A stretch of DNA of 28,637 nt, taken from Candidatus Aenigmatarchaeota archaeon (lineage in GTDB: Archaea; Aenigmatarchaeota; Aenigmatarchaeia; QMZP01). The DNA lies in the NCBI GenBank assembly GCA_039091855.1, contig JAWCLA010000006.1, positions 1 through 28,637 of the forward strand. The letters are read 5' to 3'. Below are positions 8,466 to 13,099 of this stretch, in pieces; the first letter of the stretch is position 1; every line of letters starts with the position of its first letter. The notes below the pieces were generated by a model that saw nothing but the letters and a program-made list of their open reading frames with translations, made no database searches and had not been told where the DNA came from. The position numbers and the translations under genes are program-made.

Positions 8466-9083
8466 TCATTCACCTTTGTATCTTCGCCTTCTCTCGATTT
8501 TCTCAATCCTTTTCAGGACGTCATTAGATTTTGGATAGTTTTGTTTATAAGCATTTATAATGTTTTTCCATGCCTCTTCAAGCAGTTTAAGGTGTGTAGA
8601 CTTCAGGGCTTCATAAAGAAGGAAAAGGTCAACCGCCTGGTCCTCAATCTTGCCTGAAATCTTTCCTAGGCCGAAGTCTATTATGAAAAGCCTTCCGTTG
8701 GTTAGAATCATGTTCGATGTTGTTAAGTCCCCATGGACTATGCCTGCTGAATGAAGCCTGCCTGTTGCCTCTCCTATCATCCTGTAAACGCTCATCCTTC
8801 TTGCCTTTGGCATTGCGTTAAGCGTGTCTTTTAGCTTTTTTCCGTCAATCCATTCCATAACTATTTTTGATTCTGATGTTTCTATTACATTTGGCACGTG
8901 TACACCTGCCCTCTTAGCCCTGAGCAAAAGACACTCCTCCCTTCTTGTTCTCTGGATTCGAATTTTATCATCAAGCTGCGGTATTCTGTAGCCCTTCGGA
9001 AGCCTTTCCTTAACAAGGACTTTGTTCCCTCCAATTTCCTCAATATAAAGAATTGCCTCTGCGCCCCTCTGTATTACCTGCAT
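8466..9083 (-). CDS. bud32: KEOPS complex kinase Bud32
   Basis: RGAEA, KERLPKGYR, RTRRE, HGDLTTSN, IDFGL, EDQAVDL and C-terminal RRRY motifs. Confidence 0.95.
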   Translation of the reverse strand: MQVIQRGAEAILYIEEIGGNKVLVKERLPKGYRIPQLDDKIRIQRTRREECLLLRAKRAGVHVPNVIETSESKIVMEWIDGKKLKDTLNAMPKARRMSVYRMIGEATGRLHSAGIVHGDLTTSNMILTNGRLFIIDFGLGKISGKIEDQAVDLFLLYEALKSTHLKLLEEAWKNIINAYKQNYPKSNDVLKRIEKIERRRRYKGE

Positions 9084-9277: not shown

Positions 9278-10489
9278 TTAAATATCCTTCCTGTACCTCA
9301 AAATCCCACCAATGCCACCGAGCTCCTTTAACTGCTCACCCTTCTGCGTGTGTACGGAAATCATCTCAACTGTGGTTCCCATCTCCTCTGCTGTCCTTAT
9401 TATGTTCTCTGTTATGTCTTTCTCCTCCGTGACATCAAGCCTTGAATTGCATTCAGGACACTTCTGCTCATCTATCTGAGCCCTGTTAAGGATTTTCTCG
9501 GTTTTGTAGCCGCAGGAAGGGCATTGGAATCCCGTCCTTACCCAGTCAAACTCCTCGGAAAGCAGAAGAAGCTCGAGATTTCCTGACTTGAGGGCATCTG
9601 CTGTCTCGAAGAAACCATAGACTGCGAGACCAGAATCCTTCTGGAGTTCGGAAAAGAACCTGTCAAGGACTTTCTTCTCCCTTATGACAGACGCCTCTGC
9701 AATAATCTCTTCCGCCCTTTCAACAGCTTCTTTCAACCCGTACTCTCCTGTGTAAGAGGTGTTGACTGTTCCCAACACCTTTCCCTTTATTGTGTATTCA
9801 AGAAAGTCACCTTCCGCAAACTCTTCCTTTATCGGTCCTGGACCGCCTATTATTACACCCTTTAACTCAGGAACCTGCTTGAAGTTGGCTGTGGCGACCT
9901 CGCCAACCTTCTTTAGGAAGTCGTTTAGCAGTCCTTCTCGTATCCTGGCATACCTGTTTGCGCTCCAGCCTCCTGCCTTTGTCTTGCCAGGAACTATTGA
10001 GTCCATACTCTTTAGAAGCTCAATCCTCTTTCCCTTAAGCAGCCCTATTGCAGCGTTATTCTTGTCAACAACAATTATTCCATAGACTTCCCTTTCCCTA
10101 ACCATCTCCTTCAAGGGATCGAGTATGAAGTTCTGGTCGCACCTGTAAAGCCTTGTTTTCACGGGCTCGTGGGGCTCTATTGCCCATATCTCTATGTCAG
10201 CCACGCCTTCCTTGTCAGAAACGTTTCCGCAGAAGATAACAAGCCCGTTTTCGGGCGTCTGCCTGTAAAGTTTAAGGTGCTGCATTATCCTTTCCAGCGC
10301 AGCGAGAACGTTCTTCCTGACGGTCTTGCTCTTGACGTTCTGCGCTGTCGACTGCTCAGAGCGAATCTGCTCGACCACCTTTGTCAAGTTGTATCCTGCA
10401 GGGACGTAAAGGCTGATAAGCTCTGTGTGCCTGCCCCTTATCTTCTCCAGCTCTGATATTATTGCCCTCAGTCTCCTTTCCTCTTCCAT
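9278..10489 (-). CDS. prf1: Peptide chain release factor aRF1 (GGQ replaced by GGW)
   Basis: GRHTELISLYVP, TAQNVKS (NIKS-like), YRCDQNF (YxCxxxF), VPGKTKAGGWSANRY, IIGGPGPIK, a C-terminal CxxC..CxxC zinc ribbon and GGIGGILRY. Confidence 0.95.
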   Translation of the reverse strand: MEEERRLRAIISELEKIRGRHTELISLYVPAGYNLTKVVEQIRSEQSTAQNVKSKTVRKNVLAALERIMQHLKLYRQTPENGLVIFCGNVSDKEGVADIEIWAIEPHEPVKTRLYRCDQNFILDPLKEMVREREVYGIIVVDKNNAAIGLLKGKRIELLKSMDSIVPGKTKAGGWSANRYARIREGLLNDFLKKVGEVATANFKQVPELKGVIIGGPGPIKEEFAEGDFLEYTIKGKVLGTVNTSYTGEYGLKEAVERAEEIIAEASVIREKKVLDRFFSELQKDSGLAVYGFFETADALKSGNLELLLLSEEFDWVRTGFQCPSCGYKTEKILNRAQIDEQKCPECNSRLDVTEEKDITENIIRTAEEMGTTVEMISVHTQKGEQLKELGGIGGILRYRKDI

Positions 10490-10667: not shown

Positions 10668-11357
10668 ATGGAGAGGCTGAAAACTTGCATACCTGGTCTT
10701 GATGAGCTTATGGGAGGCGGGATTCCAAAGACCCAGCTCGTGCTTTTGACAGGAACGAGCGGGACAGGAAAGACCACGTTTTGTACCCAATTCATATATC
10801 ACGGGGTGAAGAAATTCGGCGAGAACGGGGTATATCTTACCCTGGAGGAACCCATAGACTCCATAAAGGAAAATGCAAAGGGTTTTGGCTGGGATTTTGA
10901 CGCCCTTGAGAAAACCAAGAAGTTCGCCTTCATAAGATACGACCCCTTTCACATAGAGGATGTTTTCACTATGCTTGAGTCAACCGTAAGGCAGATAAAG
11001 GCCGTGAGGGTGGTTGTTGACTCCGTTTCCGCGATAGGGCTTCACATAAAGGACAAGACAGAGCTTAGGAGGATGATTTTCAACCTTTCCCTCATCCTAA
11101 GAAAGCTTGGCTGCACCGCCCTCATCTCCTCTGAGATAGTCCCTGGAAGCAAGGGAATATCAAGGTACGGGGTTGAGGAATTCGTTTCTGACAGCGTAAT
11201 AGTACTTTATTACGAGAGGTTGCAGTCAACCTTCTCAAGGGCTCTTCAGGTTTGGAAAGTTAGAGGCTCGAGCCACTCTGAAAAGCTGCATCCCTACAAA
11301 ATAGACGAGAACGGCATAACAGTATATCCAAAGGAGGAGGCGTTCATAAAATGGTAA
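10668..11357 (+). CDS. KaiC/RAD55-family single-domain ATPase (FlaH/ArlH-like), linked to the pilus ATPase
   Basis: IPGLDELMGGG, Walker A GTSGTGKT, TLEE, RVVVDS, GVEEFVSD and KVRGS motifs. Confidence 0.9.
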   Translation: MERLKTCIPGLDELMGGGIPKTQLVLLTGTSGTGKTTFCTQFIYHGVKKFGENGVYLTLEEPIDSIKENAKGFGWDFDALEKTKKFAFIRYDPFHIEDVFTMLESTVRQIKAVRVVVDSVSAIGLHIKDKTELRRMIFNLSLILRKLGCTALISSEIVPGSKGISRYGVEEFVSDSVIVLYYERLQSTFSRALQVWKVRGSSHSEKLHPYKIDENGITVYPKEEAFIKW

Positions 11358-13099
11358 GGCTTAAACTTAAGCCAAAGGAGAAAAAACAAGCCGTAGAGTA
11401 TCCAAAATTCCAGATAAAGGAGGCAAAGGGCTTAATAGTGATACCTCCTGTTTCTGACATAACAAAGGTTGATATAAAATACCCGCTAATAGAGCCGTTT
11501 GCTTTTGCAAGAATTTTATGGGAACCGAACGGAAAGAAGCTTGTTTACACTATTATGGAGCCTGAGATGAGCGATGACGACAAGGGAATTCTTAGAAAAA
11601 TAGAAGACGCGCTTATGGAGGTCATAGATGTAAAGCTTTCCAACATAAAGAACAGGGAAGAGGCAGTCCAGTACATCCAGTCAAAAACAAACAGCGTTCT
11701 CGGCGATATGAACCTTGTCCTGCCTAGCGAAAGATATATGAAAATAATGTACTATCTCGTAAGGGATTTTGTTGGGCTGAATGAGATAGAGCCGCTTATG
11801 TATGACCCTTACATAGAGGACATAGGGTGCAGTGGCGTAAACACGCCTGTCTACGTAGTGCACAAGAAATTCGGCTCGCTTGAGACAAGCCTTGTTTATT
11901 CAGACCCTGAAAAGCTCTCAAACTTTGTCATAAAAATTTCGGAGAGGTGTGGCAGATACATCTCTTATGCAACGCCGCTTCTTGACGGAAGTTTGCCTGA
12001 CGGCTCAAGGGTTCAGGCATCTCTTGCAAAGGACGTGACTACAAAGGGTCCTACCTTCTCCATCCGAAAGTTCAGGAAGAACCCATTTTCACCAATAGAC
12101 ATAATAAACCTTAAGACAGCATCAGCTGATATGATGGCATACCTCTGGCTTCTGATACAGCACAATGTTTCGATTATGATATGCGGCGGGGTTTCAACCG
12201 GAAAAACGAGCTTCCTGAACGTCCTCAGCATGTTCATACCCATGGAGGAGAAGGTCATCTCCATAGAGGATACGAGAGAGATAAACCTTCCGCACGAGAA
12301 CTGGATACCTTCTGTATCGAGGTCGGGGTTTGGCATACAGGATGTGACAGGTAAAAAATACGGCGAGGTTGACCTTTTTGACCTTTTGAAGGAGAGCTTC
12401 AGGCAGAACCCCGACTATGTGGTGGTTGGGGAGATAAGGGGAAAGGAGGCTTACGTTATGTTTCAGGGAATGGCGTCAGGCCACGCGTCTATGGGAACCA
12501 TTCACGCAGGCTCTGTTGAGGATGTTATGAAAAGGCTCCAGACCCCTCCGATAGAGCTTTCGCCTTCACTGATAGAGTCCCTTGACATAATGATAGTTAT
12601 GACCAACGCGAGGGAGAAGGGAAAGTCTGCGAGAAGGGTTAAGGAGATATGCGAGATACAGTCCGTTGACAGCCACACAGGGATAGCTCACACGAAAAAA
12701 ATATTCACCTGGATACCTTCCGAGGACATTTTCAAGGAGGAGCTTTCCGAATCAGTCCTTATTCAAAAGATATCATTCGAGGAAGGAGTTCCACTTCAAA
12801 AAATGGTTTCGGAACTAAGGGACAGGAAGTCTGTCCTGCTGTGGATGCAGAGGCAGAACATAGTGCAGTTTGAGGACGTCTGTTACGTGATAAACCTCTA
12901 CTACAAGGACAAGCCTGCTGTTATGTCATGGGTAAGGAAAAACACAAATCCCTTCAAAAAGGAAGTTCTTCCCGAGAAGCCGAAAGCTTCTGAAAAAAGG
13001 AAAGTCAGGCAAAAGGAGAGCAAGCGTGAAAGAAAGCAGAAGAGGGTTTCAAAGGAGCTCGAGGAGATAGAGGAAATACTGAAGAGCGCTAAAAGGTAG
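11351..13099 (+). CDS. Type II/IV secretion system (type IV pilus) assembly ATPase, VirB11/TadA/FlaI family
   Basis: DPYIEDI, LPDGSRV, FSIRKF, Walker A GGVSTGKT, IEDTRE, RQNPDYVVVGEIRG and GH...TIHA. Overlaps the KaiC stop. Confidence 0.93.
   Translation: MVRLKLKPKEKKQAVEYPKFQIKEAKGLIVIPPVSDITKVDIKYPLIEPFAFARILWEPNGKKLVYTIMEPEMSDDDKGILRKIEDALMEVIDVKLSNIKNREEAVQYIQSKTNSVLGDMNLVLPSERYMKIMYYLVRDFVGLNEIEPLMYDPYIEDIGCSGVNTPVYVVHKKFGSLETSLVYSDPEKLSNFVIKISERCGRYISYATPLLDGSLPDGSRVQASLAKDVTTKGPTFSIRKFRKNPFSPIDIINLKTASADMMAYLWLLIQHNVSIMICGGVSTGKTSFLNVLSMFIPMEEKVISIEDTREINLPHENWIPSVSRSGFGIQDVTGKKYGEVDLFDLLKESFRQNPDYVVVGEIRGKEAYVMFQGMASGHASMGTIHAGSVEDVMKRLQTPPIELSPSLIESLDIMIVMTNAREKGKSARRVKEICEIQSVDSHTGIAHTKKIFTWIPSEDIFKEELSESVLIQKISFEEGVPLQKMVSELRDRKSVLLWMQRQNIVQFEDVCYVINLYYKDKPAVMSWVRKNTNPFKKEVLPEKPKASEKRKVRQKESKRERKQKRVSKELEEIEEILKSAKR

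Follow-up and report, generated by a model that had tools for sequence, protein, structure and literature searches.

The 28,637-nucleotide stretch of DNA analyzed here, called the window throughout, comprises positions 1 to 28,637 of contig JAWCLA010000006.1 (assembly GCA_039091855.1, Candidatus Aenigmatarchaeota archaeon) and carries a gene for the archaeal class-I release factor aRF1, in which the GGQ tripeptide of the catalytic loop reads GGW. The genome to which the window belongs (G000) amounts to 689 kb in 38 contigs and is 84% complete. In the following, labels beginning with G, C, L, X and f refer to genomes, contigs, loci, sequencing runs and families, respectively. The gene and its relevant parts are located in the window as follows:

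9278..10489, minus strand: aRF1 gene, an uninterrupted open reading frame (ORF) of 403 amino acids plus stop
10328..10339, minus strand: stop-codon motif NVKS (NIKS-type), residues 51-54, read in the translation
10127..10147, minus strand: YRCDQNF (YxCxxxF motif), residues 115-121, read in the translation
9965..9973, minus strand: G173 G174 W175 (GGA GGC TGG) in the place of GGQ, from ungapped alignment and two sequencing runs
9956..9964, minus strand: S176 A177 N178, which is S-Q-x in most non-Gln relatives, read in the translation
9449..9523, minus strand: zinc ribbon insert of domain 3, CPSC...CPEC, residues 323-347, from Pfam and the translation
9293..9319, minus strand: GGIGGILRY near the C-terminus, residues 391-399, read in the translation

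All three Pfam domains of the family were detected above their cut-offs (PF03463, eRF1_1, 69.8 bits; PF03464, eRF1_2, 135 bits; PF03465, eRF1_3, 88.9 bits), and the aRF1/eRF1 ortholog model TIGR03676 covered residues 5-400 and scored 495.3 bits (cut-off 234.7). Scores for related factors remained below the respective cut-offs, i.e., the protein is not a member of the pelota model TIGR00111 (86.6 bits, cut-off 177.65) or of the acVLRF1 model NF041024 (46.9 vs 125 bits), and the same holds for the Balon-type models NF052289 (36.5 vs 320 bits) and NF052288 (31.2 vs 480 bits). An AlphaFold2 model calculated with 50 aligned relatives had a mean predicted local distance difference test score of 83.9. 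When this model was used for a fold search, aRF1/eRF1 chains ranked first (best match 4af1, E 1.5e-41), and Balon hibernation factors were also found among the matches. In the 50 aligned relatives, N51, K53 and S54 of NVKS, Y115, C117, Q119 and F121 of the second motif, and the zinc-ribbon residues C323, C326, C344 and C347 are invariant, and domains 1 and 3 are conserved to a similar degree as in ordinary aRF1. NIKS-type and YxCxxxF are the names under which the two stop-codon motifs appear in the literature. An earlier annotation made solely from the letters of the window (the sequence-only reading) had described a full three-domain aRF1 with NVKS, YRCDQNF, zinc ribbon and GGIGGILRY, and each of these elements is indeed present in the translation. 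The gene is real and single-copy and encodes a complete aRF1 ortholog in which the stop-codon motifs are intact.

The exception is the loop, where the window aRF1 retains Gly-Gly and does not carry Gln at the tip. The plus strand at 9965-9973 reads CCAGCCTCC, corresponding to GGA GGC TGG on the minus strand. In a phmmer search against PDB chains, VPGKTKAGGWSANRYARIR aligned without gaps onto vpgkqrkggqsaqrfarlr of 4af1 (E 1.3e-81) and the loop likewise onto the GGQ of human eRF1, in both cases with W175 opposite Gln. Codons and alignment thereby bear out the GGQ-to-GGW replacement in a gapless loop proposed by the sequence-only reading. Its further statement that no substitute Gln exists holds in part: between residues 119 and 205 there is no Gln, but Asn stands at position +3 after the variable residue (N178, the only carboxamide near the loop of the window aRF1) and Gln at +2 in 38 of 46 non-Gln relatives. 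The codon was also recovered from contigs of two public hot-spring metagenome runs of one study (X1 and X2), among which the source sample may possibly be found. A 776-nucleotide piece from X1 (9286-10061) differs from the window only at 9396 and 9647, and a 272-nucleotide piece from X2 (9879-10150) is identical to it; both show TGG at 9965-9967, where CAG or CAA would encode Gln. Furthermore, TGG occupies the loop codon in more than 100 separately assembled relatives, in which the neighboring Gly codons vary (GGA, GGC, GGT, GGG). It is mainly this persistence of TGG next to varying Gly codons which makes a sequencing error unlikely, as had been assumed before from the number of base changes required. 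Contigs of a second organism from runs X1 and X3 match the window only at 9965-10005. The sequence of this organism seems to continue as GGW-SQQRYARVRE (a loose end, read by eye), and with this reading a GGWSQ relative would co-occur with the GGWSAN form in the same hot-spring runs.

The distribution of the loop residue was surveyed within the phylum, named Aenigmarchaeota in the source records, which is represented in the collection by a single class with 371 genomes; a sample of 101 genomes was drawn across it. GGW is fixed in the clade of the window: it was read in 117 of 121 proteins (query plus the 120 best database matches), the remaining four having GGQ, and in 29 of the 30 aRF1 loci of the window's order, with GGQ in one. 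The 101-genome sample contained 59 genomes with GGQ, 29 with GGW, six with GGM, one each with GGY and GGA, and five in which the loop was unread. A DNA pattern back-translated from PxK-x3-GGW-[S/C/T] matched 117 of the 371 genomes, including 79 of 90 in the window's order; the reversed control pattern gave matches in about 11 genomes, and for at least three genomes the match was evidently due to chance alone. Within the GGW-pattern matches both Gly codons use all four third letters and TGG is constant, and such a combination of free Gly codons and a fixed TGG looks like purifying selection on Trp. In agreement, G173, G174, S176 and R179 are invariant in the 50 aligned relatives and W175 is conserved in at least 90% of them. 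When all 371 genomes were scanned with a general pattern, 145 of the 261 matches were listed and read by eye. Among the matches listed, GGF was found in one family, and family f21 has mostly GGM (33 M, 3 Y and 2 W in 38 rows). Two genera without a pattern match have GGM followed by a mini-intein. Sister lineages use the codons ATG, TAY, TTT and GCA at the Trp position, so that W, M, Y, F and rarely A were read besides Gln at the equivalents of residue 175. Families in which, apart from four f1 genomes, only non-Gln aRF1 was read contain 215 of the 370 other genomes, these genomes being partly read. As judged from these comparisons, a hydrophobic residue has taken the place of the GGQ Gln across a large part of one DPANN phylum, and the Trp of the window has evidently been inherited and kept by selection.

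With these data, an artefact or a non-standard reading, i.e., a sequencing error, a decaying or paralogous copy, or TGG read as or edited to Gln, becomes extremely improbable. Nothing positive speaks for it beyond the fragmented and incomplete assembly. The occurrence of the same codon in two runs and in the separately assembled genomes, the intact frame, the ortholog-level score and the lack of a second copy in the searches described below argue against it, and the sister codons ATG, TAY, TTT and GCA are not explained by one recoding of TGG. Also, W102 and W316, the other Trp codons of the gene, lie in nearly invariant columns.

A search of the window's own genome for aRF1 relatives returned the window gene and one Pelota (344 amino acids, contig C29), and the bacterial-type release factor domain PF00472 was not found in this genome at its 84% completeness. 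At least one aRF1 match was obtained in 38 of 41 order-level and in 98 of 101 class-level genomes searched. Where genomes had two matches, the pairs that were read each proved to be a single gene interrupted by an intein or by the ends of contigs, and neither in the own genome nor in the relatives searched was a second or additional GGQ-bearing aRF1 copy seen. The specialized paralog considered by the sequence-only reading as one possibility is not supported by this result. The 314 ORFs of at least 250 amino acids in the own genome end with TAA (131), TGA (119) or TAG (64); all three stop codons are frequent and hence in use. The window aRF1 is best explained as an ordinary, essential termination factor and not as a side copy.

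In textbooks, the glutamine of GGQ and its N5-methylation count as universal features of translation termination. As criterion for the responsible methyltransferase Mtq2, we used the archaeal HemK/Mtq2 model TIGR00537 (cut-off 87 bits) together with an NPPY motif. The best TIGR00537 match in the own genome reached 37 bits. In the 101-genome sample, matches over the cut-off were distributed as follows:

GGQ genomes: 59, of which 51 have TIGR00537 over the cut-off
Non-Gln genomes: 37, of which 1 has TIGR00537 over the cut-off
Loop-unread genomes: 5, of which 3 have TIGR00537 over the cut-off

The single non-Gln case (G111, 87.5 bits) is an ORF of 368 amino acids without NPPY, and the search for HemK2 suggested before thus gave no Mtq2/HemK2 in the own genome, nor in 36 of the 37 genomes with a non-Gln loop. 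With neither a loop Gln nor an over-cut-off TIGR00537 match, the window aRF1 does not qualify as an Mtq2 substrate. Several matches near the cut-off, namely those of G027 (83 bits) and G111 (87.5 and 79 bits) and the second match of G015, were rejected as Mtq2, all of them being devoid of NPPY. Four of five NPPY-less matches cluster with the second match of G108, a genome that also holds a true Mtq2, and the 87.5-bit match of G111 sits apart on a very long branch; the NPPY-less matches were treated as paralogs. In family f9, a methyltransferase encoded about 1.6 kb away from aRF1 was also rejected (NPPI motif, TIGR00537 match only at positions 8-91). It has 203 amino acids (L190, 3745-4356, minus strand, G064:C2) and occurs at the same place in five f9 genomes. 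For Trm112, which also has other partners, the best match in the own genome scored 14.8 bits. In PMC6144793, Haloferax Mtq2 is described to methylate the Gln of aRF1, and the authors regard Mtq2 orthologs as present in all archaea and GGQ as universal. In the genomes compared here, the apparent loss of Mtq2 accompanies the loss of Gln at two levels, across the phylum sample and within family f1.

The second level is provided by four f1 genomes with GGQ (G009, G015, G022 and G023) inside the otherwise GGW order. In the aRF1 tree, the bodies of their aRF1 proteins are of the order's type. An Mtq2-like gene with the motif FNPPYLP was found in G009 (120 bits), G022 (98 bits) and G015 (79 bits), and a TIGR00537 search of the f1 GGW genomes G003 and G019 gave no NPPY Mtq2. 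The Mtq2 proteins of G009, G015 and G022 form their own long-branched clade (support 95). In a tree of aEF-2, G015, G022 and G023 form a clade (100/100) whose position within the order is not resolved by the tree; GGW family f14, from outside the window's order, branches next. GGQ and Mtq2 may have been either kept or regained in this subclade, and a regain could have come about by intein homing in which the flanks were co-converted. The aRF1 of G009, G015 and G022 contains an intein of about 500 amino acids, with none in G023. In the relatives, the aRF1 inteins are inserted precisely after the third loop residue (Q, W or M) and before the next Ser, equivalent to window 9964/9965, and the 18 examined range from 133 to 510 amino acids. 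Among the 13 large inteins, two lineages were distinguished, in correspondence with the host allele: all seven from GGQ alleles, three of which are from f1, form one clade (100/100) apart from the inteins of GGW and GGM alleles. Examples of intein-bearing aRF1 genes are:

L187 (G015), L188 (G022), L189 (G009), L193 (G019), L194 (G039), L032 (G003) and L220-L229

With regard to the number of origins, an aRF1 tree calculated with the motif columns placed every non-Gln row except one in the same clade (92 in the Shimodaira-Hasegawa-like approximate likelihood ratio test). A quick free search with the motif columns removed did not recover a single non-Gln clade, and a tree constrained to hold the non-Gln families together was better by 59.65 log-likelihood units (p 0.926 in the approximately unbiased test), the constrained group having been named after the trait was seen. 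A single origin of the non-Gln state is compatible with these data.

The residues following the loop were compared in the 46 non-Gln, intein-free aRF1 proteins read. Thirty-eight have Ser-Gln directly after the variable residue (GGxSQ), and the eight exceptions all belong to the window's order, where they are spread over several branches (six SAN including the window, one SSN and one SAS). GGxSQ was also seen in nearly all non-Gln rows among the matches listed in the phylum-wide pattern scan. By eye and again among the matches listed, a few GGM forms of f21 have no Gln at +2 (MSA in G211 and G217, MSS in G237), and GGQSQ is already present in some GGQ families (G053, G059, G071 and further f19/f22 rows). 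Tyr for Phe at +5 and Ile for Val at +8 tend to accompany the non-Gln state. A plausible path would lead from GGQ-S-A via GGQ-S-Q and GG[W/M..]-S-Q to GGW-S-A-N. These residues could mean that the carboxamide has moved down the loop in a register shift, giving GG-x-S-Q as in VLRF1-type factors, with residue 175 as a spacer or anchor and the +3 Asn replacing the +2 Gln in the window's own sublineage. The prevalence of S-Q, the GGQSQ families as possible intermediates and the +3 Asn in seven of the eight forms without +2 Gln (six SAN and one SSN, on several branches) are in line with this explanation, and GGxSQ is the motif of aVLRF-1 and acVLRF-1 according to Burroughs and Aravind (PMC6514570). 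Nevertheless, we consider it rather unlikely, since the amide is not always kept, as seen from SAS in G025, MSA in G211 and G217 and MSS in G237, and the window aRF1 itself has no Gln at +2. Moreover, the long helix in the AlphaFold2 model is predicted to start at residue 175 in the free form, which would place +2 on the first helical turn and not at the tip.

In RF1 and eRF1, many substitutions of the Gln keep partial release activity, and changes of the Gly residues abolish it. Tolerance of Gln substitutions has reportedly been seen in the GGQ mutagenesis of Shaw and Green 2007 and Seit-Nebi 2001. Taken together, the window aRF1 probably works as a release factor, with the Gly-Gly backbone and a hydrophobic residue for packing as its basis, and does without methyl-glutamine. 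Termination with a Gln-independent, non-methylated loop, which the sequence-only reading had suggested for this lineage, would fit the fixation of GGW, the sole copy and the missing Mtq2. In such a mechanism, the two glycines would place the loop in the peptidyl-transferase centre (PTC), and the invariance of Gly-Gly, Ser176 and Arg179 speaks for a loop that still enters the PTC. Catalysis would fall to the main-chain NH of residue 175, as assigned elsewhere to the Gln backbone amide, and the bulky hydrophobic side chain would supply the packing otherwise given by the methylated Gln. An encoded greasy residue could in this way stand in for a post-translational methyl group, making the methylase dispensable in reduced genomes. 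A nearby carboxamide (the +2 Gln in most relatives, the +3 Asn here) may help to order the water, albeit it is not strictly kept. In PMC6742477, hydrolysis is catalyzed by the Gln backbone amide, and in PMC5799190, the Gln side chain serves for packing, with further van der Waals contacts, namely to U2506, A2451 and 2452, provided by methylation.

Alternatively, the factor might read stop codons without efficient hydrolysis, followed by Pelota-style splitting with ABCE1 or by drop-off, after which a peptidyl-tRNA hydrolase or another factor would hydrolyze the product. Such a course of events has some appeal because both the hallmark Gln and the enzyme methylating it are missing, Pelota and Balon factors of the same fold work without GGQ, and these small, probably host-dependent archaea have reduced genomes of 0.5-1.9 Mb. 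It is nonetheless quite improbable, as invariant G173, G174, S176 and R179 and a tightly held residue 175 would be unexpected in a PTC loop without a job. Additionally, domains 1 and 3 are conserved as in ordinary aRF1, and searches of the own genome gave no further release-factor-like protein.

The ribosomal counterpart of the loop was inspected in a partial 23S ribosomal RNA gene of the own genome, located outside of the window:

G000 contig C8:11155-13078, minus strand: partial 23S rRNA gene, locus L135

When numbered according to the annotated E. coli rrlH, its PTC shows the changes C2452U, A2453G, C2499U, U2500C, A2503C, U2504C, U2586A and A2600C; a blastn search with the PTC stretch found no match in E. 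coli. Three 23S segments compared in 50 genomes revealed that most of the unusual PTC letters are shared by GGQ and non-Gln families; C2452U, A2453G, C2499U and A2503C are widespread in the phylum, and U2504C was present in nine of nine rows of the own order, including GGQ genome G015, and in none of 32 others. PTC changes as a specific covariation with the loss of Gln were rejected on the basis of their occurrence in both kinds of families. Still, the phylum has an unusual active site, and one of the changed nucleotides, 2452, lines the Gln pocket. The far-reaching proposal that an entire archaeal branch terminates without Gln or methylase, that methyl-Gln serves mainly for packing, which W, M, Y or F would hard-wire, and that loop and PTC co-drifted to an alternative chemistry is possible, though we put it forward only tentatively. 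Compared with the Rfam model for the archaeal large subunit, the partial 23S gene contains one insertion of 962 nucleotides and about ten of 32-119 nucleotides, which may be introns or expansion segments. Regarding transfer RNAs (tRNAs), no match in the own genome reached the Rfam tRNA gathering score, and ARAGORN detected one tRNA, or four with introns allowed. Same-genus relatives had 9-14 and other members of the order 10-47 tRNA matches, many of which are 100-150 nucleotides long and hence intron-bearing. The scarcity of tRNA genes could be due to assembly loss or to heavily interrupted genes.

Several points weigh against a Gln-independent release factor as the explanation of the data. 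We infer catalytic competence from conservation and single-copy status, and the own genome is 84% complete. The tolerance of Gln substitutions mentioned above is cited from secondary passages, and the bulky indole might not fit the canonical PTC pocket. Eight of the 59 GGQ genomes have no over-cut-off TIGR00537 match, three of these eight having sub-threshold or truncated matches, and no Mtq2 was detected in GGQ genome G023 (58% complete). Because the genomes are kin, the correlation between Mtq2 and Gln extends over few independent events, with possibly a single non-Gln origin and with one f1 GGQ subclade.

The genes next to aRF1 in the window encode a small RIO-type kinase (205 amino acids, 8466-9083, minus strand), a KaiC-family ATPase (229 amino acids, 10668-11357, plus strand) and a type II/IV secretion-type ATPase (582 amino acids, 11351-13099, plus strand), and for none of these three neighbors was a tie to termination seen. 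The aEF-2 gene of families f5 and f6 directly adjoins aRF1 at a distance of about 70-130 nucleotides, an arrangement that the window does not show. Examples of aEF-2 beside aRF1 are:

G035:C28, G038:C35, G032:C16, G029:C2 and G028:C8

The non-Gln aRF1 is, as far as the compared genomes tell, real and lineage-wide, and we infer its mechanism. No description of a non-Gln aRF1/eRF1 loop or of Mtq2 loss in these archaea was found in the full-text literature, subscription journals and supplements lying outside the search, and the literature joining GGQ with Aenigmarchaeota does not mention a replacement of Gln. A natural replacement of Gln combined with loss of the methylase bears on the question of whether the side chain is catalytic or serves for packing and gate-keeping. 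Nature seems to have run this mutagenesis with W, M, Y, F and A, with a GGQ plus Mtq2 subclade in the same family. For annotation pipelines and motif screens, this means that an aRF1 without GGQ can be a genuine factor, and the picture of core translation machinery divergence in DPANN archaea is extended. If the far-reaching proposal were true, the release-factor loop and the ribosomal active site would have drifted together towards an alternative termination chemistry.

Among known systems, canonical aRF1/eRF1 (4af1; human 1dt9 and 5lzu) has the same three-domain fold and length as the window aRF1 and shares with it the NIKS-type and YxCxxxF motifs, the Gly-Gly with the following S..R, the C-terminal GILRY and the status of a single-copy ortholog. 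Differences are the exchange of Gln for Trp (in sister lineages for M, Y, F or A) and the Mtq2 partner, which was not found. The GGxSQ motif of VLRF1/Vms1-type proteins matches most of the non-Gln relatives, whereas the window aRF1 has GGWSAN and gives weak, sub-threshold acVLRF1 matches (47 bits). VLRF1/Vms1-type proteins (PMC6514570) are rescue factors without a stop-codon-reading domain, in contrast to the window aRF1, which has that domain. Pelota/Dom34 and Balon-type factors belong to the same superfamily and fold and act on ribosomes without the Gln of GGQ, but they lack NIKS and YxCxxxF, both of which are present in the window aRF1. Laboratory GGQ mutants (the AAQ form of eRF1 for cryo-electron microscopy and Gln substitutions in RF1, RF2 and eRF1) concern the same tripeptide and are engineered and generally impaired, whereas the change of the window type is natural, lineage-wide and accompanied by the loss of the methylase.

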